Shown here: positions 1,219-42,693 of the stretch, piece by piece | Position numbering within the stretch: position 1 is the stretch's first letter | Layout of the letters: every line of letters starts with the position of its first letter | Assembly: GCA_049519355.1 (NCBI GenBank) | Contig: JBEKQV010000003.1 | Coordinates: 19,646-83,645, forward strand | Reading direction: 5' to 3' | Source: Candidatus Microgenomates bacterium | Lineage (GTDB): Bacteria; Patescibacteriota; Microgenomatia; UBA8517 | Length of the DNA: 64,000 bases | Position numbers and translations under genes: made by a program | Notes under the pieces: model-generated | What the model was told of the DNA's origin: nothing | What the model saw: only the letters and a program-made list of their open reading frames with translations | The model's database searches: none

Positions 1219-2148
1219 ATGAAATCTGCCCGAAGACGTGCGTTTATTGAACGAAAGAGAAAAAAGGGAAAATTCTTTGGAATTCTTGTCAAAGTTTTTA
1301 CCCCCGTTTTTTTGATTCTTGCGATCTTTGTCTTTATAAGGATCAGTACCCGCTATTGGAACGGACACGACAAAGTCAGCGTTGCATTCAGAGAGGCAAA
1401 TGGGGACGCGGCCATAACGGTAATGGATCCAAAGCTTGATGAAGTAACTACATTTACTATACCGGGCGATACGCAAGTTGAAGTAGCGCGGAATTTCGGG
1501 ACCTTCCGGATTAAAAATGTCTGGCAGCTCGGGATTGATCAAAAAGCCGGCGGAAGTTTGCTGCCGGAGACGATTAGAAATAATTTTCTTTTTCCGGTAT
1601 TTCTTTGGAGCGAGAGCAGTGCAGAAAGTTTAGGAACCGGAAACATGGGCGGAATTTTGCATTTTATTTTTCTTCCAAAAACAACAAATATTCCCTTTGG
1701 GGACAGACTTTCAATGGGAGTTTTTGCTTTTCGTATACAGGATCTTGGCAGAAGTGAGATAGATCTTGGCCAAAGTCAGTTTGTGACAAAGGAAACACTA
1801 AATGACGGGCAAATCGGTTATGTAATTAACGGCCCGATTTCTCAAAGATTAACTGTTTATTTTTCCGATAATGATATTGCGGATGAAAATCTTAGGGTCA
1901 ATATTGTTGATGCTACAGGGGCTCCAGGTGTTTCGGATAATGTCGGGGAAATTTTGGAGGTAATGGGAGGCAAGGTTGTATCGGTTGATAAGAAGTTAAG
2001 TGCCGAAAACTCGGACTGTAGTGTTACCGGAAACAACTCCGAGATTATCCGAAAAGTTTCAGATCTTTTTTCCTGCCGGGTCGTTAAAGGACAGACCGAT
2101 TTTGATCTTGAAATTCAGCTTGGGCAAAAGTTTGCCGCCAGGTTTTAA
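1219..2148 (+). CDS. Membrane-anchored LytR_C-domain protein (LCP/LytR cell-envelope related)
   Basis: N-terminal basic stretch plus TM helix. The C-terminal VNIVDATGAPGVSDNVGEILEVMGGKVVSV segment matches the LytR_C domain pattern. ATG at 1219. Confidence 0.45.
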   Translation: MKSARRRAFIERKRKKGKFFGILVKVFTPVFLILAIFVFIRISTRYWNGHDKVSVAFREANGDAAITVMDPKLDEVTTFTIPGDTQVEVARNFGTFRIKNVWQLGIDQKAGGSLLPETIRNNFLFPVFLWSESSAESLGTGNMGGILHFIFLPKTTNIPFGDRLSMGVFAFRIQDLGRSEIDLGQSQFVTKETLNDGQIGYVINGPISQRLTVYFSDNDIADENLRVNIVDATGAPGVSDNVGEILEVMGGKVVSVDKKLSAENSDCSVTGNNSEIIRKVSDLFSCRVVKGQTDFDLEIQLGQKFAARF

Positions 2149-2150
2149 AT

Positions 2151-2843
2151 TTACTCTGGAGTTTCTTCCGTAGCCTCGACGATGGGTGTATCTTTATGAA
2201 TCAGTTCTGGGGAAGTAAAGGCAACATAATCTATTTTTTCCGTTGGGAAAGAAGAAATATCCGGGGCTTTGGGGCCGCGTTCAATTTCTCTGATAAAAAC
2301 AGCGACCTCTTTCGGTTCAACTGATTTAATTAAGGTTTGGTATTTATTACCGGCCTTTATTAGATTTCTAAGCCTTGCGGCGATATCGTCGGGGAGGCTT
2401 CCGATGTGTTTCCCGTCAAGTGTGTTTATTGTAACTTTGTGGGGATAGGAAACTAGTTTTACTTCTTCCCCGGGATCGAGATTTGTAAAAACAGAACTAT
2501 CTCCCAAATTAAGGAGCGTTATAAGTCTGGTTTTTCCCGGCTCTTCCAGAAAAGATTCTGAAGAAGTAGGAGTAGAGAACTCACCACTGACTTTTTTTGC
2601 GGTTTTAAGTTTCTCAATAACTTTTAATGCTATCGGGTTAACCGCATCAATTTTTAAAACTTTTTTTGCCATTTCCCTTGCTTGGGAGATTTTTCCAAGT
2701 TCCGTGTAAGCTCGAGCAAGACGATTTAAGGCATCAACATCTTCGGAATTTTCCGAGAGTATTTCGAGATTAATTTTGACTGCCTCGGTCCAGTTTCCGG
2801 AGAGAGCTAAATTGATCGCAAGTTGGGCGGGAGAAGTATCCAT
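2151..2843 (-). CDS. TPR-like helical repeat protein
   Basis: N-terminal region has TPR-like helix-pair periodicity (ALNRLARAYTELGKISQAREMAKKVLKID). No catalytic motifs seen. Confidence 0.35.
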   Translation of the reverse strand: MDTSPAQLAINLALSGNWTEAVKINLEILSENSEDVDALNRLARAYTELGKISQAREMAKKVLKIDAVNPIALKVIEKLKTAKKVSGEFSTPTSSESFLEEPGKTRLITLLNLGDSSVFTNLDPGEEVKLVSYPHKVTINTLDGKHIGSLPDDIAARLRNLIKAGNKYQTLIKSVEPKEVAVFIREIERGPKAPDISSFPTEKIDYVAFTSPELIHKDTPIVEATEETPE

Positions 2844-2888
2844 GTATAAGTTAAGCTGTTATTGAGTATAGGGAGCGGGAGATTAATG

Positions 2889-3515
2889 TCAATAGGTTTT
2901 GAATAGGAGTTTTAGTGTAGATTTTGTCATAAGTATCAGGGTGAACCACATTATAGATAAGTCAGTAACGGCAGAGCCGTTTTCCACATAATTGCGGTCA
3001 AGTTTCATCCATTCCTTGAAAGAAAGCCTGTGTGATCCGTTTACAACCCAATTACTGGTTATACCGGGATTGACAAGTTCTCTAACTTTCTCTCCACGGT
3101 TAAGCTTTCGTGCCTCACCAATGGGGAATGGTCTCGGCCCAACGATACTCATTTCGCCCTTGAGGACGTTTATTATTTGGGGTAGTTCGTCAAAACCGGT
3201 TCTTGAAAGGGCCTTCCCAAATTTTGTAAACCTGGGATCATCTTTAATTTTAAAAACAGGTCCGTCAGCTTCGTTGAGTTTTTTGAGCAGGGATTGTTTT
3301 TGGGAAGCACTAGGCGTCATCGTCCTGAATTTGAATATTTTAAATATTTTTCCGTTTTTGCCAACACGGTTTTGAAGAAAAAAAATATCACCTTTCTCAG
3401 TGAGTTTAATTGCCAGTGATGTTAGAGACGCAATAGGAAGTGTAACAATGAGGATAATTATAGAAACCGAAACATCCAAAAACTTTTTTGCAAATGAGGT
3501 GTGATAATCATTCAT
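2889..3515 (-). CDS. Small PglC/WbaP-type initiating sugar phosphotransferase (polyprenyl-phosphate hexose-1-phosphate transferase)
   Basis: Single N-terminal TM helix followed by the hallmark bacterial sugar transferase motifs FKFRTM, DELPQ and GEMSIVGPRP. Length ~208 aa matches PglC-like monotopic PGTs. Confidence 0.85.
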   Translation of the reverse strand: MNDYHTSFAKKFLDVSVSIIILIVTLPIASLTSLAIKLTEKGDIFFLQNRVGKNGKIFKIFKFRTMTPSASQKQSLLKKLNEADGPVFKIKDDPRFTKFGKALSRTGFDELPQIINVLKGEMSIVGPRPFPIGEARKLNRGEKVRELVNPGITSNWVVNGSHRLSFKEWMKLDRNYVENGSAVTDLSIMWFTLILMTKSTLKLLFKTY

Positions 3516-3520
3516 TTAGG

Positions 3521-4510
3521 TCAGAATAAGTTGGCCCAGATAATCATTGCCTCTTTTAGTTTCTTGAAATATATTCCTTTCGGAAATTTAATTTTCTGAG
3601 CCAGTTCAATATAACATGATTTCGGGTTGTTTCCTTTCAAATTTAATTCCTCGACAGATTTCCATAGAATCTCATTAATTTTCATTCCTTTCAGCTCTTT
3701 TGTACGGTTATGTCCCGTGATTGAGGCTTTTTTGTGATTAACGAAAGGGGATCCATTGACAACACCGGTTTTCAGGTGATCCATTATTTTTTTTGAAAAT
3801 ATTCCGGCCCAAATGTCGTCGTATCTGTCATAACTCCATAGTTTTCCTTTGGGATCAGTTCCCATCATTGGGAAAAACATAATCGGTGTCACCTCCCGTT
3901 TAAACGCAAGGTTCATACTACACATCGGATAAAAAAGTCCAAATGGAATAAATTGGGTTAATGGTGGATAATTCTTCTCGTTCAAAATTTTTGGAAGTTT
4001 GATTTCTGTTTTTGCATCCAGGTCAAGTGCTCCGGACCATAGGCCGTGACTTACACTTACGGAATGAACATCTCTATTTTTGTAGGGGAAACCACGGGTG
4101 AACATCCATTTGGGGTTAGGATATGTTGCTTGCCAACCCACCGGTATTTTCCTTCTTAGATTCTCCAAGTGTTTTTTGACAAAATCTTTTTCGGCAGGGT
4201 AGCAGTCATCGTCAATCGTAATGATTACGTCCGCTCCGGCATTATAGGCTTCCCAGAAGCCAAAGGAACGAATTCCTGCATTTTTTCGGGAAAATATCCA
4301 CGATTTTTTACCAAATTCTTCTTCAATATCTTTGTGGGAGAAGACGGTAACTGAGGAAAACTTTAAATCTGGAATTTTGGCTTTTTTCTCCCACCGGTCT
4401 TCAACAATAATCAGGTGACAACCTGAAAATTCATTCTTCCATCTATTTAGAAATGACAAATTTCTTATTGTAGGAATAACAACGAATACTTTTATTCTTT
4501 CATTCTTCAT
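3521..4510 (-). CDS. GT75 family protein (reversibly glycosylated polypeptide / UDP-arabinopyranose mutase-like)
   Basis: VVIPTIRNLSFLNRWKNEF...HLIIVEDR and IITIDDDCYPAEKD align closely with plant RGP1 (IVIPTIRNLDFLEMWRPFF...HLIIVQDGD and IFTIDDDCFVAKD). The ORF-track start at 4531 is TTG; I use the internal ATG at 4510 (MKNERIKVF), which removes the overlap with the next gene. Confidence 0.7.
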   Translation of the reverse strand: MKNERIKVFVVIPTIRNLSFLNRWKNEFSGCHLIIVEDRWEKKAKIPDLKFSSVTVFSHKDIEEEFGKKSWIFSRKNAGIRSFGFWEAYNAGADVIITIDDDCYPAEKDFVKKHLENLRRKIPVGWQATYPNPKWMFTRGFPYKNRDVHSVSVSHGLWSGALDLDAKTEIKLPKILNEKNYPPLTQFIPFGLFYPMCSMNLAFKREVTPIMFFPMMGTDPKGKLWSYDRYDDIWAGIFSKKIMDHLKTGVVNGSPFVNHKKASITGHNRTKELKGMKINEILWKSVEELNLKGNNPKSCYIELAQKIKFPKGIYFKKLKEAMIIWANLF

Positions 4511-4522
4511 GGTATATATTCT

Positions 4523-5344
4523 ATGCACCAAGTTGGTAAACTTGATATAACACTTGCATTAGGCGAATTTATCATGACACGAATCGAAACACAACAATTT
4601 TTTGAGCTTCTCTGGGGGATGACCGAAAGAGAACTTCGGGCAAGGTATAAATATACTGTTTTCGGATTTTTGTGGATTGTATTGAACCCTGCATTTCAAA
4701 TGTTAATAATTGGTTTCATCTTCAGGTTTTTTATGAAAGAGCCAGTTCAGAATTATTACTATTTTCTTTTTATTGGACTTTTGATTTGGAATTTTTTCTC
4801 TTTATCTTTATCGAAAGCAACTCCCTCAATAGTTTTTGAAAGGACGCTTATAAAGAAAGCGAAGTTCTCGCGTTCGATTATCCCCCTGGCAATTGTTTTT
4901 TCTAATTTTGTTCATTTAATGGTCGCGATGGTTCTTCTTACCGTTCCGGTACTTTTTCTTAACACAATGACCATTACGAGTATTTTCTATATTTTAATCG
5001 CATTTGTTCTACTTCTTGTATTTACGTCGGGTATAAGCCTTCTTTGCGCAGCTTTAGATGTCAGATTTCGTGATGTTAATTTTTTTGTACAGGCATTTAT
5101 AATTTTTTGGTTTTATGCAACGCCGATAATATATCCATTATCAATTGTCCCTTATCAGTATTATTGGCTTTGGCGTTTTAATCCGATGACTGAGATGCTT
5201 CAATTTCTTCAGCACGGTTTCTTGGGGATGCCGCTTCCCGGAACGGCGATGATTATTATAAATACTATGCTAATAATAACCGTGGCGGCTGCGGGGATAT
5301 GGGTTTTCGGTAAAGAAAGTAAAAATTTTGACGATTGGGTATAA
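4523..5344 (+). CDS. ABC-2 type polysaccharide exporter permease (Wzm/TagG/KpsM-like)
   Basis: Six predicted TM segments and a conserved N-terminal ELLWGMTERELRARYKYTVFGFLW motif typical of Wzm/TagG. Immediately upstream of an ABC ATPase. Confidence 0.8.
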   Translation: MHQVGKLDITLALGEFIMTRIETQQFFELLWGMTERELRARYKYTVFGFLWIVLNPAFQMLIIGFIFRFFMKEPVQNYYYFLFIGLLIWNFFSLSLSKATPSIVFERTLIKKAKFSRSIIPLAIVFSNFVHLMVAMVLLTVPVLFLNTMTITSIFYILIAFVLLLVFTSGISLLCAALDVRFRDVNFFVQAFIIFWFYATPIIYPLSIVPYQYYWLWRFNPMTEMLQFLQHGFLGMPLPGTAMIIINTMLIITVAAAGIWVFGKESKNFDDWV

Positions 5345-33472: not shown

Positions 33473-35665
33473 ATGACCACTGCCAAAAATATACTAAAAT
33501 CATTCAATCTGGTAAGATCTTCAGTAATTTTTCTGGTAGTTATTTGTTTATTTGTACTTTATAGCCTGAGCAGTTCATCTTTAGTTTATAGTTGCGGTCC
33601 TCTTCATTGCAGTCAAGGATCTCAATGCTCCAGCTGTTGCACCGGTAAAGCAAGCTGTACTTATGCTTGCAATACTAATACAGGAAATTGTTCCTGGAGT
33701 GTCGGTAACGCATGCACGAGTTGGTGTGCTTGTGGTGCGTGCAGTGGTGGTTATTGCGGGGAATTTTGCTGTGACGGTGTACATAACGCTGACTATCGAA
33801 TTCTGACATGTTGTGTACCGAAATGGGGTAATTGCAGTGTTTCTTGTGGCGGGGGAACGGAAAGCGATGGTTGCGGGCACTCCAGAGGGTGTAATCCTCA
33901 ACCATGTTGTACTGCTCCCTCCACCCCTACCGTGACTCAAGTTTCAACGAATAACTGGACGGTAACCTGGACAAAAGGAGCCTCGGGTAAAAACCAGGCG
34001 ATTTATATCGGAACGGATGAAACCGCTGTTTCAAAAAGTTGTCCTAATGGCACGGGAGAGGGGACGGGTTGTGTAGTCAAGAACGAAAGTTTGGATCCAA
34101 ACGCCCAGAGTTACAGTGTAACCGGTTTAGCGGCGGGGACATTTTACTATTTTATGTTGAAAGAGTCCTGTGGCAGTGCCTCCGCAGTTACCTCTTTGCT
34201 TACCTCTTGTGATTTATCTCCAAGTAGTTTGACGCTTAATTTTGGACAAACAGCTACAGTTTATACAAACGTTGTTTCCTCTCCAAACATTACAGAGGTT
34301 GACTATTCCGTTTCTACAGTAAAGCAGACGGTAGATCCGAATTGTGGTCAGTATTCAGATGCCCACAGTTGTTCGCAAAACACTCACTGTAATTGGGTAA
34401 CAACAGGTGGATCATGTTCAGGACCTCAGAATTGTACGAACTACATGGATTCAACTTCATGCCAGAATCCGCCCGCAATTTGTTCGGGTACAACCGGGAC
34501 GTGCATCGGCGGGGGAACGTGCAGTTCCCAGCGGACTTCGGTTTCCTGCACTAGTGTTAAAGGTTGTAATTGGGAAATAATGGACTGTGGTGTTTATCGG
34601 GGAAGTCAGGCAACATGTATTCAACATCAATCATGTCAATGGTTAGCCAATTATTGTCAATGGCACGCCACAAGTGATTGTGAGGGAAACCCATATTCGG
34701 TTCAGGTACCTGGTGCTGTCAGTGTTAGTCCGACTGCCGACCGATCATATGCTTATCAAACCACAGCAACAGGGGTAAGAGTCGATCCTAGCGGTTCAAA
34801 CACAATCACGAGCTATGTTTATAACGGGGTTACTCCTATTTGTTCCAGTGTTATACACGTAAGCGTTTTACCGCCCAACGCTTGGTGGCAAGTCAAAGAC
34901 GGAGACGTAATAACAAACGGAGATCTAAAAGCTAGCCTTCCTGATTATGGGAATCCATTATTTGATGTTGCCGGCGGAGGAGGCTTTCCGGGGGTTCCAA
35001 GTTATGGTGGTTCGACAGATTTGACTGCTGCAAATGTATCTTCAAAAAGTTGGTTAGTAAATTCAGATTATTCTTCGACCAAACTTTATAATTCGACTTT
35101 CTTTTTGAACGCTATTCCCCCCGACGTAAAAATAAATAATCTTGGTTCAACGTTCGATCAAATAGCATTTAATAATGCAACCGCTGATTCGGACGGCTAT
35201 GTTTGGTTTGAGTACGACGGTTCTCAAAACGGGGGGCTCGACTTGACTATACCTTCGAATTTGGATTTCGGAAGCAATAAAGTGGTTTTGCTTGTGAAAA
35301 ACGCAGATCTTGATATTAGCGGAGATATTAATTATACCGACGGGCAGGGATTTTTCCTTGGAGTTACGACGGGAAATATCGTTGTTGATCCTTCTGTCGG
35401 GGGTGGGGGAGCACCCAACCTCGAGGGGGTTTATGTTGCTGATGGGGAGTTTGTCACGGGAACAACAGGCGCCCAGGACGATTCTCAACTTTGGATTCGA
35501 GGTAGTGTCGCCGCATATGGGGGTTTCAATTTGGAAAGAGACCTTGGCCCTGATCTTAACGGAACGACTCCATCCGAACTTTTTGAATATGCTCCCGAGG
35601 TGGACTTGATGTTTCCAGCCAAACTCGGGGGATACATTATTAACTGGAGAGAAGCGGCTCCATAG
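33473..35665 (+). CDS. Secreted Cys-rich surface protein with TSP1-like repeat, FN3-like domain and Cys-rich modules
   Basis: Signal-anchor, then a Cys-dense region including KWGNCSVSCGGGTESDGCG (W-x2-CS-x-SCGGG, as in thrombospondin type-1 repeats). An FN3-like segment follows (WTVTWTKG...YSVTGLAAGTFYYF), then further CxxxC-rich repeats. Confidence 0.5.
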   Translation: MTTAKNILKSFNLVRSSVIFLVVICLFVLYSLSSSSLVYSCGPLHCSQGSQCSSCCTGKASCTYACNTNTGNCSWSVGNACTSWCACGACSGGYCGEFCCDGVHNADYRILTCCVPKWGNCSVSCGGGTESDGCGHSRGCNPQPCCTAPSTPTVTQVSTNNWTVTWTKGASGKNQAIYIGTDETAVSKSCPNGTGEGTGCVVKNESLDPNAQSYSVTGLAAGTFYYFMLKESCGSASAVTSLLTSCDLSPSSLTLNFGQTATVYTNVVSSPNITEVDYSVSTVKQTVDPNCGQYSDAHSCSQNTHCNWVTTGGSCSGPQNCTNYMDSTSCQNPPAICSGTTGTCIGGGTCSSQRTSVSCTSVKGCNWEIMDCGVYRGSQATCIQHQSCQWLANYCQWHATSDCEGNPYSVQVPGAVSVSPTADRSYAYQTTATGVRVDPSGSNTITSYVYNGVTPICSSVIHVSVLPPNAWWQVKDGDVITNGDLKASLPDYGNPLFDVAGGGGFPGVPSYGGSTDLTAANVSSKSWLVNSDYSSTKLYNSTFFLNAIPPDVKINNLGSTFDQIAFNNATADSDGYVWFEYDGSQNGGLDLTIPSNLDFGSNKVVLLVKNADLDISGDINYTDGQGFFLGVTTGNIVVDPSVGGGGAPNLEGVYVADGEFVTGTTGAQDDSQLWIRGSVAAYGGFNLERDLGPDLNGTTPSELFEYAPEVDLMFPAKLGGYIINWREAAP

Positions 35666-38019: not shown

Positions 38020-38116
38020 CTTCAAAATATTAAATAATAAGTTAATATACAGAAAAATTTATGAGATGCCCAGGCAGGGGAGGAGGGTGGTACATACCCG
38101 TAATTATAGGGTAGTG

Positions 38117-38139
38117 TCCGTGCCTAGGCACGATTTTTT
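38117..38139 (+). terminator. Rho-independent terminator-like hairpin downstream of the membrane-protein gene
   Basis: Perfect palindrome cgtgcctaggcacg (38119..38132) followed by a ttttttc run. Confidence 0.4.
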
Positions 38140-38826
38140 CACGAAAATTATAGGGTGTTTTCACGATTTGCGACATAGGAATCAAGACGAAGAAAAACCG
38201 AACACAAAATTTACAGAGGATATGTATAGTTTGATATAGTTGTCAATCTTGAAGAGATGATTATTATGGCTCTTCCCAAGCGTGTGTGGATAACTAATTA
38301 GTGACACATGTAGTTAAGACAGCGCCCTACGAGAGAAGGGGTCTCCCGGAACCTTGAGGTAATGTGGACATCGATGAACCCCCCTAGAAGCATAAGTGGT
38401 AATGTGGACACAGAAGTCCCTGGGGAAGCTATTTATACTAGGTCGCACAATGTAACTTTTGCGACGCAAACCAAAGCTGGTGCCGGAGTGTAGTGTTTTT
38501 ATTAATCTCTTACGGACGCCATGGTTTTTATTTTTTATGGCAAGTTATTTTTATTTAATTACCCCTTTTTAGATATACGTCGAAAATTGTCCTTCCGAAC
38601 AAACACCGTAACGAATTTTTCGCTTATTTCGCCACTTCCCCGCTTTTCATTAAATGTTTAGGAAAATCAAGAATTTAAGGTAATTATTTTTATTCCGTAT
38701 TTTCGGCTTAAAGGAAGACGACCTCTTATATGTCTTTTTATTTAGACAGGCCTTAAAATCGATTTGGTGAAGCCACTTTTTGAGTTGATTTTACTGTGCT
38801 ATAGAGATTAGACTTAGCTTATACAA

Positions 38827-39051
38827 ATGGAGATAAACGAAAGCGTTGAATCTGTTGAACCGTCAGAAGGAATATCTTTGTCCGACAAATTACAAAACAT
38901 TGCATTAAAAGTGCATGTCGATAAAGATATGCTGATTGCAACCACAGCGGTCGTAGTGGCAGTTGCAGTAGGAATAAACGCGCACCTAAGTCTTTTATGG
39001 CTTCAGCAAGGTATCAGTATATTTGAGGATAGACTTAAAGGAAACCACTAG
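38827..39051 (+). CDS. Hypothetical small protein (74 aa)
   Basis: ATG start, acidic N-terminus, one hydrophobic stretch (TTAVVVAVAVGINAHL). No homology recognised. Confidence 0.25.
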   Translation: MEINESVESVEPSEGISLSDKLQNIALKVHVDKDMLIATTAVVVAVAVGINAHLSLLWLQQGISIFEDRLKGNH

Positions 39052-39099
39052 CCCGTATTAACTTAATGTCGTACAATATTGCTCTTGTCCCCAAATATT

Positions 39100-39987
39100 A
39101 TGTCGATAGAAAATAAATACCTTCAGACTGTTCGATCAATATATCGTGGTATAACTTCTCCGAAAGATGATCATCTTAAAGAGATTGTCGGTATGCGTAC
39201 ACCCAGAGAAGAATGTACAAGATTTAATCCCCCACCCGAGCGACTCTTACCGGAAATTGTGAAAGTACTCGAATCGAGAAAAGATATTAGTTTGTCTAAT
39301 CTTAAGTCAGATTTGGGAATAAAGAGATCGGATGTAATGACTCTTTTTGCAAGTTTTATCGATCACCATAAGATTGAGCGTGTTAAAGTTTTTTCGCCGT
39401 ATACGGAAGGCGCCGTCGCAGTTATTAATGGGGTTATGGAAAAGCAATTGCCGGTTACAATACCCGAACAATTTGGTATGGCTCTAGGCCGTTCAGAAGG
39501 TAATATCAGTTTAGCCGTAATATACCTTTCATTGGCAACCAGAATGATGGCAAGGAATTCAGATTCCCGGATTTTCCCTATTAGTTTTAGTGATAACGCC
39601 ATATTTTTATGGAAAAATAAAGTTGCACCGTTCGGTTGGGTAGAAAATGATTCCGATGAGGATCCGGCCGGTGACACATATCATCTTTGGCTTGCGGCGC
39701 TTGCCGGAATCAGTCGGGAAGAAAAATCCGATCCGGGACCAATTAATAAAGCAAAACAATTTGTGTGTGACAATACTTATCCTCATGTAGCCGGGGTAAC
39801 TCAAATTTTAAGACACGAATTTTTCTTTGGTATTCAGGGTTTGGTTGGGCATAAGACGGATGATAGTGAATTGCAAGATAAGATTGAATGGCCCACCCAC
39901 GGAGTAGTTGATAGGGTTGGTTATAATCTCGGACGCTACACGGTAAATTTTTATGAGTCGCACAATCATATTGACAACCCTCTCTAG
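39100..39987 (+). CDS. Hypothetical protein (295 aa) of unknown function, upstream of the recombinase
   Basis: The ORF-track start at 39079 is TTG; the ATG is at 39100 (MSIENKYLQ). No recognisable motifs. Confidence 0.35.
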   Translation: MSIENKYLQTVRSIYRGITSPKDDHLKEIVGMRTPREECTRFNPPPERLLPEIVKVLESRKDISLSNLKSDLGIKRSDVMTLFASFIDHHKIERVKVFSPYTEGAVAVINGVMEKQLPVTIPEQFGMALGRSEGNISLAVIYLSLATRMMARNSDSRIFPISFSDNAIFLWKNKVAPFGWVENDSDEDPAGDTYHLWLAALAGISREEKSDPGPINKAKQFVCDNTYPHVAGVTQILRHEFFFGIQGLVGHKTDDSELQDKIEWPTHGVVDRVGYNLGRYTVNFYESHNHIDNPL

Positions 39988-40016
39988 CCGAGCTACATTG
40001 AATTAATTAACATTTA

Positions 40017-40970
40017 ATGCCTGCGCCCACAACTAATCATTCCGAGATAGCCCAAAAGGCTAACGAGTTTTTAGAATATCTTCAAGTTGAGCGTGGTGCC
40101 TCTCCCCTAACGATTCGAAATTACCGGCATTATTTGACGAGATTTATGAATTGGATGGAATCGCAAGGAATCCGTGAGGATCTAAAAGATATTAACCCCG
40201 ATGTTGTCAGGAGTTTCAGAGTTTATCTTTCCAATCTTCCCGGAGAAAATAAGGCGCAGATGGCGAGGCGGACTCAGGGCTATCACGTTATTGCCATGAG
40301 GAGCTTTCTCAAGTGGCTAATCAAAAACGATTATTCGGTTATGGCGCCTGACAAAATCGAACTGCCGAAAGTTGAGGAAAGGCAGGTTAAGTTTTTAAAC
40401 GGCGAACAGGTGGACAGACTCCTAAATGCACCGAGTTTATCGACAATTCAGGGTAAAAGGGATAAAGCAATTCTGGAAGTTCTTTTTTCAACAGGGCTTC
40501 GTGTTTCGGAGTTAACTAAACTTAACCGCGACACAATTGATCTTGACCGTCGGGAGTTTGGAATAATCGGAAAAGGTGGAAAAGCCCGGGTTGTATTTCT
40601 ATCCCAAAGGGCGGCCGACTGGCTGATTAAATATATTAATGGACGCGATGATCACTTTAAACCACTCTTTATTCACCACAAGGGTATTGCCGGTCCGGGT
40701 ACGCCTGATGAAAAAATGCGTCTTACTCCCCGATCGGTTCAAAGAATGGTGAAAAAGTATTCCCATAAAATGAAACTACCGGTTGAAGTGACTCCCCACG
40801 TAATGCGCCATAGTTTTGCAACGGACTTGCTTATGGCCGGGGCGGATATTCGGTCGGTTCAAGAAATGTTGGGACATAAAAACATCTCTACAACCCAAAT
40901 CTACACTCATGTTACAAACAAGCAATTAAGAGATGTCCATGAAGCATTCCATGGAAAAGGAGGAAACTAA
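40017..40970 (+). CDS. Tyrosine site-specific recombinase, XerC/XerD type
   Basis: N-terminal SAM-like core-binding domain. C-terminal catalytic R...HxxR...Y: GLRVSEL, HVMRHSFATDLLMAGADIRSVQEMLGHKNISTTQIYTHV. Confidence 0.85.
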   Translation: MPAPTTNHSEIAQKANEFLEYLQVERGASPLTIRNYRHYLTRFMNWMESQGIREDLKDINPDVVRSFRVYLSNLPGENKAQMARRTQGYHVIAMRSFLKWLIKNDYSVMAPDKIELPKVEERQVKFLNGEQVDRLLNAPSLSTIQGKRDKAILEVLFSTGLRVSELTKLNRDTIDLDRREFGIIGKGGKARVVFLSQRAADWLIKYINGRDDHFKPLFIHHKGIAGPGTPDEKMRLTPRSVQRMVKKYSHKMKLPVEVTPHVMRHSFATDLLMAGADIRSVQEMLGHKNISTTQIYTHVTNKQLRDVHEAFHGKGGN

Positions 40971-42028
40971 TCTTCAATTTTTTCCCAGGGAAATCCTGGC
41001 CGGCCGAAGTGACCGTATGAAGCGGTAGCTTGGTAAATCGGATTTCTTAAACCAAGTCTTTGAATAATAGCAAGCGGCCTGAAGTCATAATTTTTAGTAA
41101 CATACTTCGACATATCTTTTCCTTTTTCATCCGTTGCCGTAAGCATTAATGGTTCAGCTTTTCCAATTGCATAAGCAACCGAGACCAAACAGCTTTTTGC
41201 TAAGCCTTTTGCTACAATATTTTTGGCGACAAACCTGCACATATAGGCGCCACTTCTATCAACCTTTGTCGGGTCTTTTCCGGAGAAGCACCCACCTCCG
41301 TGCGGAATAAGCCCGCCGTAAGTATCAACCATAATTTTTCTTCCGGTTAAACCAGTATCGGCAACAAATCCACCAACCTCAAATTTCCCCGTCGGATTAA
41401 CCAAAATATCAATCCCCTTTATATTCCCCACTACTTTTTTAATTAATTTATCGGCAATTTCGCGTCTGATGGTTTCAATGGGAATCCCCTTTTTGTGCTG
41501 GGCCGAAACCAAGACGGTTTTAATTTTTCCGTTTTGCATAGTTATCTGGGCTTTGCCGTCGGGAAGAAGCCAACTAATTTTTTTGCTTCTTCTTAAATCT
41601 TCCAATCCTTTGGTAAGTTTGTGAACCATAGCCACCGCTTTAGGTAGATATTCCGGGGTTTCGTTAGTGGCAAAGCCGTACATTATTCCCTGATCGCCCG
41701 CCCCCCCGGTATCAACCCCCATGGCAATGTCGGGAGATTGTTTAACAATATTTGTGATAATACGCAGTTTATCGGTATGTCCGATATCTCTATAAACTTT
41801 TCTGGCAATTTTGGCGGCATCGAACTTTGCATGGGTTGTAACTTCCCCGCCGATAACAAAAAGGCCATGAGCTCCAAAACTTTCTATGGCAACCCTGGAT
41901 TTTGGGTCTTGAGTCAAACACGCGTCAAGAATTGCATCCGAGACCTGGTCGCAAATTTTATCGGGATGTCCGCTGGTTACGGATTCAACTGTATAATTTT
42001 TGAAGGAATTTGAAAAAATATTACTCAT
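40967..42028 (-). CDS. metK: S-adenosylmethionine synthetase
   Basis: ESVTSGHPDKICDQVSDAILDA, GGGAFSGKD and the other MetK signature blocks. The ORF-track start is GTG; the ATG at 42028 (MSNIFS) matches the usual MetK N-terminus spacing. Confidence 0.9.
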   Translation of the reverse strand: MSNIFSNSFKNYTVESVTSGHPDKICDQVSDAILDACLTQDPKSRVAIESFGAHGLFVIGGEVTTHAKFDAAKIARKVYRDIGHTDKLRIITNIVKQSPDIAMGVDTGGAGDQGIMYGFATNETPEYLPKAVAMVHKLTKGLEDLRRSKKISWLLPDGKAQITMQNGKIKTVLVSAQHKKGIPIETIRREIADKLIKKVVGNIKGIDILVNPTGKFEVGGFVADTGLTGRKIMVDTYGGLIPHGGGCFSGKDPTKVDRSGAYMCRFVAKNIVAKGLAKSCLVSVAYAIGKAEPLMLTATDEKGKDMSKYVTKNYDFRPLAIIQRLGLRNPIYQATASYGHFGRPGFPWEKIED

Positions 42029-42114
42029 ATCGTTTGTCAGCTTTAGCACCTTTCCTGAACTTTTACTTCAGGGGGCTGTTGGCGGATCATTAGGCTGACT
42101 CCCTCCCCGCGCTC

Positions 42115-42693
42115 TTGATACTAAAACCTATTTTAAACGCAATAGGACCTGAGTCAATAGGAATTTGCTATAATAATTCCGTGGTAACGATAATTCTTCC
42201 CGGAGCATCAGTGCAGAATAAGGAATGGCTGGAAGAAACGGCAAAGAAAATTAACGTTGATGGTGAAATCAGGCCGATTTATTGGGATCACTGGACAGAC
42301 CCTTCAAAAGAATTTAACAAGGAAGAGAAAGCAAGACTGATTAATGATATTGTCGGAATGAGAGTAGTCGATATTGTCGCCAAATCAATCGGAACTCTGG
42401 TTGCAGCTTACATGATTCAGAAAGCTCCCGAAAAGATCCATAAAATAGTTTTTAACGGTATTTGCCTAAACGATTTGAACGAGGATGAAAAGGAAGTAAT
42501 TAAATCCGCTCTAAAACTGATTTCCCCTGAAAATATTATGTGTTATCAGAATGAAGAAGATCCCCATGGGAGCTTTGATCAGGCGAAAAAGTTTTTGTCC
42601 GAAGTTAGTCCGGATATAAAAATAATTTCAAAGGAGAGAGGTGATCACGAATATCCATACTTTGAAGAGTTCCACAATTTTCTTCTGGAGTAA
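42115..42693 (+). CDS. Hypothetical small alpha/beta-hydrolase-like protein (start uncertain)
   Basis: AKSIGT nucleophile-elbow-like motif and C-terminal GDHEYPYF. TTG at 42115; an in-frame GTG at 42181 is an alternative start. Confidence 0.3.
   Translation: MILKPILNAIGPESIGICYNNSVVTIILPGASVQNKEWLEETAKKINVDGEIRPIYWDHWTDPSKEFNKEEKARLINDIVGMRVVDIVAKSIGTLVAAYMIQKAPEKIHKIVFNGICLNDLNEDEKEVIKSALKLISPENIMCYQNEEDPHGSFDQAKKFLSEVSPDIKIISKERGDHEYPYFEEFHNFLLE

Follow-up and report, generated by a model that had tools for sequence, protein, structure and literature searches.

A candidate single-recombinase Xer/dif module in and beside a conserved non-coding region in a Microgenomates bacterium

The longest non-coding stretch in a 64-kb piece of DNA from a Candidatus Microgenomates bacterium (this whole piece is referred to below as the window) lies at positions 38020-38826, upstream of a gene for a tyrosine recombinase. 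This gap, already recognised as the largest in an original prediction made from the letters of the DNA, measures 807 bp, against 418 bp for the runner-up. We propose that the gap and the recombinase together form a single-recombinase Xer/dif dimer-resolution module at the terminus of a Microgenomates/Woesebacteria-type chromosome of the candidate phyla radiation (CPR), the lineage to which the source organism belongs, with the dif core at 38440-38467. We would give this interpretation a probability of about 60%. Seven lines of support were computed here: the conservation of the locus, the architecture of the site, the covariation of its arms, the linkage to xer, the polarity of a short word, a terminus-like skew and an intact catalytic set in the recombinase. 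Binding of Xer and recombination at the site, the participation of a DNA translocase and the roles of the other invariant blocks would follow by analogy with known systems. The original prediction had mentioned a Xer/dif-associated region as a passing alternative, and it is this alternative that the evidence now favours.

The candidate dif site, its recombinase and the terminus signature

The locus was followed in relatives by means of a DNA pattern derived from two invariant blocks of the gap, which retrieved it in 5 genome contigs and ~25 metagenome contigs; 3 further loci were added through Xer homologues, and four pattern matches (L012, L018, L034 and L037) were due to chance and were removed. 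The genome contigs are labelled as Woesebacteria, Microgenomates or Patescibacteria, with one mislabelled as Gammaproteobacteria. The latter (L010, CAZYCE010000005.1) is a contig deposited as part of a metagenome-assembled genome of an "uncultured Gammaproteobacteria" that nevertheless carries a CPR-type YebC-DUF5656-gap-xer locus and has probably been mis-binned. The gene order YebC, DUF5656, gap (~750-800 bp), variable slot, xer, metK and gyrA was found in ~30 distinct Microgenomates/Woesebacteria-type sequences. These relatives differ only in the genes between the gap and xer, while the flanks and xer itself are constant.

The candidate core is a 28-bp site in which 11-bp inverted arms (AGGTCGCACAA on the left and TTTTGCGACGC on the right, complementary at 8/11 positions) surround the asymmetric 6-bp centre TGTAAC and border it with AA/TT. 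It is located 1.55 kb upstream of the only tyrosine recombinase gene of the window, and occurs once in the window and once in each relative locus examined. A palindrome is present at the same offset, always intergenic, in 27/27 sufficiently long sequences. In 25 of them it is of the standard type, the centre being TGTAAC (or TGTAAT) or TAATAC, and in the other two (L022 and L031) an alternative palindrome occupies the same place, with arms AAACCGAGTATAA and TTACACTCGGTTT around TAACCC, again with a 6-bp centre and AA/TT borders. The two arms covary: 79.8% of the cells pair, and the observed score was reached by 0/500 shuffles. At one arm pair, 15 distinct sites have C-G, 5 have T-G and 2 have T-A, and the outer triplets of the two arms vary in concert, as when TAG is accompanied by CTA. 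A mismatch at arm position 9/20 is shared by 21/22 distinct sites, a pattern for which two unequal protein-binding arms are a better fit than an RNA helix. In the available flanks of the relatives, no second conserved 11-6-11 site came to light. Archaeal dif was predicted in silico by looking between genes for a conserved 11-6-11 inverted repeat whose flanks are conserved too (PMC2958812), and the same criteria were applied to the present site.

The recombinase (40017-40970, plus strand, 317 aa) is of the Xer type, with the Pfam Phage_integrase domain and a SAM-like N-terminal domain. Aligned to XerD (1a0p), it conserves the whole catalytic set of Arg, Lys, His-x-x-Arg, His and Tyr. Its scores with the NCBIfam XerC and XerD models are nearly equal and both below the cut-off (258.8 versus 335.15 and 256.6 versus 329.6, respectively), the XerS model gives 142 bits versus a cut-off of 267, and the only equivalog model passed is XerA_Arch (234.8 versus 220). 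There is no second recombinase partner in the 64-kb window, and the protein does not classify as a XerC or XerD equivalog. Such a XerA-only profile is that of a single-recombinase system, for which a dif with two similar arms would be expected. Across more than 120 protein clusters this Xer is 80-91% identical.

Two variations of the recombinase deserve a mention. The protein is 737-738 aa long in L005 (3831-6044), L011, L033 and L039, and according to its Pfam matches the L005 protein contains an intein that carries a LAGLIDADG_3 endonuclease domain. L031 has both the alternative palindrome and an additional Xer paralog; the two diverged paralogs there (locus positions 2646-4609, minus strand; offsets 1420-3383 after the anchor) are 32% and 45% identical to the Xer of the window, and in the resident one (45%) Lys replaces the first His of His-x-x-Arg.

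Polar words that run toward a dif from both sides were also looked for. All 1,024 pentamers were scanned at every split point of the window, in 500-bp steps, and the strongest polarity switch is that of GGGGA at 38.5 kb, with 110 copies directed toward the switch point and 24 away from it (z = 7.4). The cumulative strand difference of this word is maximal at 38422, and the last plus-strand copy (38422) and the first minus-strand copy (38637) bracket the palindrome. To the left of the site, GGGGA is found 44 times on the plus and 8 times on the minus strand within plus-strand genes, and 16 and 6 times within minus-strand genes; to the right the figures are 2 and 12 in plus-strand genes and 7 and 30 in minus-strand genes, so that the polarity is independent of gene strand. 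Pooling 25 distinct relatives, whose loci are homologous and whose counts are therefore not independent samples, gave 204 plus and 49 minus copies on the left, against 51 plus and 192 minus copies on the right. Closer in, up to 600 bp from the site, GGGRA in the relatives is divided 86 to 13 (plus to minus) on the left and 5 to 67 on the right. We regard GGGGA as a candidate KOPS-like orienting word for this clade, judging from its distribution.

The GC skew is positive across the left 41 kb and its cumulative slope breaks at ~41 kb, which is also where gene orientation converges. Separated by gene strand, the skew is +0.115 and +0.057 on the left and +0.021 and -0.057 on the right. Both skew and word polarity pass from plus to minus across the locus, the sign of converging forks, that is, of a terminus and not an origin. 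Between 47 and 51 kb, the skew is locally positive despite minus-strand genes.

Modelled by analogy on XerS/difSL, XerH/difH and XerA/dif, the mechanism would run as follows. Two sister copies of the site would be occupied at their arms by four subunits of one Xer, and strand exchange at the borders of the centre would convert a chromosome dimer into monomers. The GGGGA words converging from both sides could orient a DNA translocase to the site, as KOPS do for FtsK, and the two genes between dif and xer (74 and 295 aa) would be variable cargo outside the machinery.

Several observations weigh against this proposal. The inverted repeat itself is ordinary, since the window contains 137 11-6-11 sites whose arms are complementary at 8/11 positions or more. 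Identity to the dif of Escherichia coli is 16/28 (P = 3e-4 as a single test), a score equalled at 89 chance positions of the window, and this similarity was discarded as a discriminator. The plain cumulative G-C curve reaches its maximum only 12 kb to the right of the site, at 51.1 kb, and the right-side skew is only weakly negative. The dif reading does not account for ~700 bp of conserved flank. L022 has the alternative palindrome together with an ordinary Xer N-terminal half (79.6% identity). Lastly, copies of the left arm found beside xer (see below) persist where the full site has been replaced, so that these copies may be bound by a protein other than the one that binds the full site.

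Layout of the gap and of the gene slot

The alignments with relatives resolve the gap into invariant blocks that alternate with variable spacers, at the same place in ~30 distinct sequences. Features are listed below by position, with the strand where one applies.

38020-38826: conserved non-coding region, delimited in the alignments of relatives, that separates the DUF5656 gene from the variable gene slot
38077-38087, plus: invariant purine block GGGGAGGAGGG, a polar G-rich word directed toward the site
38097-38111: palindrome CCCGTAATTATAGGG (CCTATAATTATAGG in relatives), unique in the window
38136-38174, plus: TTTTCACGA twice, 22 bp apart (both copies in 30/30 sequences), then TTGCGAC, which resembles the right arm of the site
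38232-38242, plus: TGATATAGTTG, invariant, resembling an extended -10 promoter element (putative promoter role)
38285-38293, minus: perfect DnaA-box consensus (TTATCCACA on this strand), a single copy, invariant in relatives
38294-38421: variable segment with a lineage-specific pair of 13-mers
38422-38429, plus: GGGGAAGC (GGGAGAAGC in relatives), the last plus-strand polar word before the site
38440-38467: candidate dif core
38493-38590: T-run and A+T-rich variable spacer
38595-38641: conserved blocks CCGAACAAACACCGTAA (38595-38611) and CCACTTCCCC (38632-38641); the latter reads GGGGAAGTGG on the minus strand and is the first polar word directed back toward the site
38695-38706, plus: small hairpin CCG-N6-CGG
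38715-38739, plus: terminator-like hairpin followed by a T-run
38756-38765, plus: palindrome AAATCGATTT, invariant
38827-39051, plus: 74-aa open reading frame, apparently a small membrane protein, in the variable slot
39068-39077, plus: left-arm copy GTCGTACAAT, 22 nt upstream of the ATG codon at which the 295-aa gene starts
39100-39987, plus: gene of the 295-aa protein, variable cargo, at this locus in 3 lineages only
39957-39999, plus: left-arm copy GTCGCACAAT (39957-39966) abutting the xer promoter

The conserved blocks of the gap are found nowhere else in the 64-kb window, and TGTGGATAA, both copies of TTTTCACG and GATAYAGTT are kept in 30/30 distinct related sequences. At a guess, and by likeness to the accessory sequences of cer/psi, the DnaA box, the TTTTCACGA pair and the palindromes may be accessory or architectural binding sites. 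The 7 bases that follow AAATCGATTT (block 38756-38775) occur mainly as one of two alleles, TTGGTGA and TACACGA, and a few intermediate forms are each restricted to a single lineage; four neighbouring positions distinguish the alleles, and no compensating partner for them was found. The inverted TGCGAC/GTCGCA copies were also considered as a sign of an invertible promoter, an idea rejected because all lineages have the same orientation.

The individual sequence elements reported in the original prediction are present, and what had to be revised is mostly their significance. The DnaA-box 9-mer TGTGGATAA stands where it had been placed (38285-38293). Counting boxes with up to one mismatch, there are 20 in the window against 17.6 expected, and they do not cluster in the gap. 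The A+T-rich tract at 38500-38560 has 75% A+T versus 60% window-wide. Repeats of TGTGGAYA do occur, but across the window they are not above chance (5 copies versus 2.7 expected, with at least 5 in 15/100 shuffles). Only a local cluster is unusual, 3 of the 5 copies falling inside 126 bp, and two of these three belong to the 13-mer pair. The 13-mer GGTAATGTGGACA is indeed present twice, at 38358-38370 and 38398-38410, 40 bp apart. Its proposed role as an iteron did not hold up, given that it was found in no relative and is specific to one lineage; the pair is missing from the relatives because it is located in the one variable segment of the gap. The same segment has received an insertion of ~500 bp in L008 and L039. 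In L008, what stands between the DnaA box and the dif-like site in place of the variable segment is a free-standing gene for a 165-aa LAGLIDADG_1 endonuclease, stopping a few bases short of the left arm of the palindrome, and the insert of L039 is of equal size. Prompted by this insertion, GATATAGT was considered as the S element of a group I intron and rejected (there is no room for P3/P8 and no Rfam match).

Downstream of the gap, the order of a 74-aa and a 295-aa open reading frame and then the tyrosine recombinase is as first described, and neither of the first two has a Pfam, NCBIfam or PHROG match. What fills the slot depends on the lineage. In most it is a gene for a 260-aa NT5C-like protein, two lineages have this gene plus a 285-aa homologue of the 295-aa protein, and elsewhere there are assorted orphan genes. 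In L030 the slot contains nothing but a gene for a 96-aa GIY-YIG nuclease. Close homologues of the 295-aa protein number only five, on contigs that read YebC, DUF5656, a gap of ~800 bp, one or two genes, Xer, MetK, SIMPL and GyrA. Its wider family is unnamed and comprises ~250 clusters at 50% identity, some members being fused to FkbM or class I methyltransferase domains. It had been suspected to be initiator-like. The AlphaFold model (from a 70-sequence alignment) is confident and all-alpha (pLDDT 90.8, pTM 0.90), and Foldseek searches matched it to no Rep or other structure in the PDB (best E = 0.55) nor to the BFVD viral models, which speaks against an initiator. A set of polar residues is near-invariant in the family (Q124, R148, R152, D155, D188, GD-YH-W at 191-197, R238, H267 and D271) and this pattern suggests an enzyme.

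The two copies of the left arm in the slot share the consensus GTCGYACAAT. The second abuts a sigma-70-like promoter of xer (TTGACA at 39971-39976, 17 nt, TACATT at 39994-39999), and a copy is found beside this promoter in every relative that extends that far, at a variable spacing (1 or 4 nt) from the -35 element. The copies could be operator half-sites for Xer or, less readily, junctions left by Xer-mediated insertion of cargo.

Two neighbours of the locus may be added. At 33473-35665, just upstream of ksgA/yebC, the window encodes a 730-aa cysteine-rich protein, probably secreted, with a weak fn3 match only. Upstream of metK there is a SAM riboswitch-like leader (42024-42124, minus strand; 39.7 bits, E = 1e-7), which a default scan missed since its score is below the Rfam gathering threshold of 44.4; the corresponding element passes Rfam in L002 (48.2 bits). 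The predicted GTG start of metK (42049) overlaps the leader, so the true start must be further in.

Other readings of the locus

The gap could instead be a complex promoter/operator for the downstream genes including xer, with the blocks as transcription factor sites and the real dif elsewhere nearby. Promoters regulated by DnaA typically have one perfect DnaA box, and one such box is present in the gap. GTCGCACAAT abuts the -35 element of xer at variable spacing in all relatives, as an operator might, and the left-arm copies stay in place where the full palindrome has been swapped. All the blocks are, moreover, unique to this locus within the window. On the other hand, 750 bp of conserved control DNA would be very long for a compact CPR genome, and the available flanks of the relatives showed no further conserved 11-6-11 site. 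The polarity switch sits, at fine scale, on the palindrome, whose asymmetric 6-bp centre and AA/TT borders are the architecture of a recombinase core site. We consider this explanation unlikely.

The second possibility is that the gap encodes one or more plus-strand non-coding RNAs and that the palindrome is a conserved RNA hairpin. Such an RNA could, for example, start at the TGATATAGT element and extend for ~260 nt as far as the T-run at 38497, or measure ~490 nt and terminate with the hairpin 38715-38739. The invariant extended -10-like block and the T-runs after 38493 and after the hairpin 38715-38736 speak in its favour. There is also a pyrimidine/purine hairpin rich in U-G pairs, and C-G to U-G changes in the stem of the site are tolerated in 5 distinct site sequences. 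The RNAalifold energy is also lower on the plus strand (-32.0 versus -27.2 on the minus strand), but the helices are weak, their covariation is unconvincing, and no plus-strand structure is obtained in the 3' third of the gap. Folding energies do not improve on those of shuffled sequence: z-scores are +1.45 and +1.28 on the two strands of the window sequence and average -0.66 (plus) and -0.86 (minus) over 18 homologues; those of sub-segments are ~0, and only the palindrome alone is significant (-2.7). Hairpins chosen by eye in a variable 40-nt segment were at the level of chance. The original prediction had recognised no known non-coding RNA in the gap, and the Rfam check agrees: nothing in the window reaches the gathering thresholds and at E up to 10 the gap yields only noise. 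ARAGORN predicted neither a tRNA nor a tmRNA, and motifs of RNase P, tmRNA, signal recognition particle RNA and 6S RNA, sought by eye in the gap, were not convincing. An RNA stem would furthermore have to carry the nearly constant mismatch at position 9/20, DNA palindromes lacking a loop and phased direct repeats make up several of the conserved blocks, and the switch in word polarity would be left unaccounted for. As the main explanation of the gap an RNA seems improbable to us. A transcript from the gap would be compatible with a dif site, and the -10-like block, the T-runs and the terminator-like hairpin keep a minor RNA reading alive.

A variant of the Xer/dif proposal gives the slot itself a function, and the housekeeping Xer of these CPR bacteria a task beyond the resolution of dimers. 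The GTCGCACAAT copies would be junctions of promoterless cassettes inserted by Xer at a pseudo-dif beside the xer promoter, making an integron- or IMEX-like capture slot, and the DnaA box and the other blocks would form a nucleoprotein "terminus organiser" that couples dif/Xer to the replication cycle. We find this extended scheme doubtful. The integron attC was considered as a counterpart and rejected, because the downstream copies are half-sites that lack an inverse-core partner. With the integron-integrase model the recombinase obtains 124.5 (cut-off 265), and the locus does not classify as an integron.

A chromosomal replication origin, with the DnaA box and the A+T-rich tract as an unwinding element, is very improbable. 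The box is perfect and invariant, there are phased repeats, and gyrA and dnaB are found within 13 kb. Nevertheless, the box is single and not part of a cluster, the 13-mers that had suggested iterons are not conserved, dnaA and dnaN are not in the window, gene orientation converges at ~41 kb, and skew and word polarity both have the sign of converging forks.

The integrated plasmid- or phage-like element of the original prediction, with iterons, an initiator-like protein and an integrase, is hardly credible: a local cluster of three TGTGGAYA copies, an A+T-rich tract, orphan genes adjoining a tyrosine recombinase and a gene content that varies with the lineage between the gap and xer are all real, but the flanks and xer are syntenic core genes in ~30 relatives (an observation that the prediction itself had named as contrary to an integrated module), Xer is highly conserved clade-wide, the 13-mers are restricted to one lineage, the 295-aa protein has no Rep-like fold, neither the DNA of the locus nor the 295-aa protein matched phage or plasmid records, no full att repeats flank the locus, and the base composition, GC content included, shows no break there.

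Relation to known Xer systems

The closest parallels to the Xer/dif module proposed here are systems with one recombinase. XerS/difSL of streptococci and lactococci and XerH/difH of Helicobacter and Campylobacter are alike in having one Xer, two similar inverted arms, linkage of dif and xer (PMC5357621, PMC1914069) and a location at the terminus. For XerS and XerH, a dif adjoining xer has been described as what may be a hallmark of systems with a single recombinase (PMC5357621). They differ in that XerS and XerH have ~355 aa, whereas the recombinase described here has 317 aa, the normal length of XerC/D. The difSL centre is of 11 bp instead of 6 bp, and the site sequences are unrelated. In addition, dif is immediately adjacent to xer in those systems, while here it is 0.7-1.6 kb away with a variable slot in between. 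The archaeal XerA/dif resembles the present module in its single recombinase, its 28-bp near-palindromic 11-6-11 dif and its conserved flanks. However, archaeal dif is reported not to adjoin xerA (PMC2958812), unlike the linked arrangement described here, and our host is bacterial.

With XerCD/dif-KOPS-FtsK of E. coli the module shares the 11-6-11 architecture, 16 of 28 site positions and polar G-rich words whose strand changes at this point. E. coli uses two recombinases and the octamer GGGNAGGG, against the one recombinase seen here and the pentamer GGGGA. No FtsK gene was seen in the 64-kb window. The plasmid sites cer and psi offer an analogy only: they too combine a core with a few hundred bp of conserved, protein-binding-like flank, on one side in their case. 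The present site is chromosomal, both its flanks are conserved, and PepA, ArgR or ArcA sites were not recognised. The slot, finally, brings to mind IMEX, the dif modules of Acinetobacter and insertion sequences that target dif, with which it shares variable genes that lie by dif and are bounded by partial copies of one arm (PMC10132070, PMC12907356), and the selfish nuclease genes that occur there in relatives are a further likeness. In contrast with these, the downstream copies here are half-sites only, and no pair of full sites flanks any insert.

In the searchable literature we found no description of a dif site or terminus marker for CPR bacteria. The ~700 bp of invariant flanks, with a perfect DnaA box at a terminus, and the gene slot between dif and xer are features for which no known Xer system accounts. 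If our interpretation is right, the locus adds a bacterial single-recombinase system with an enzyme like the archaeal XerA. A conserved and recognisable Xer/dif module would then be a landmark for closing and orienting CPR genomes, and would aid the estimation of growth rates from origin-to-terminus coverage.

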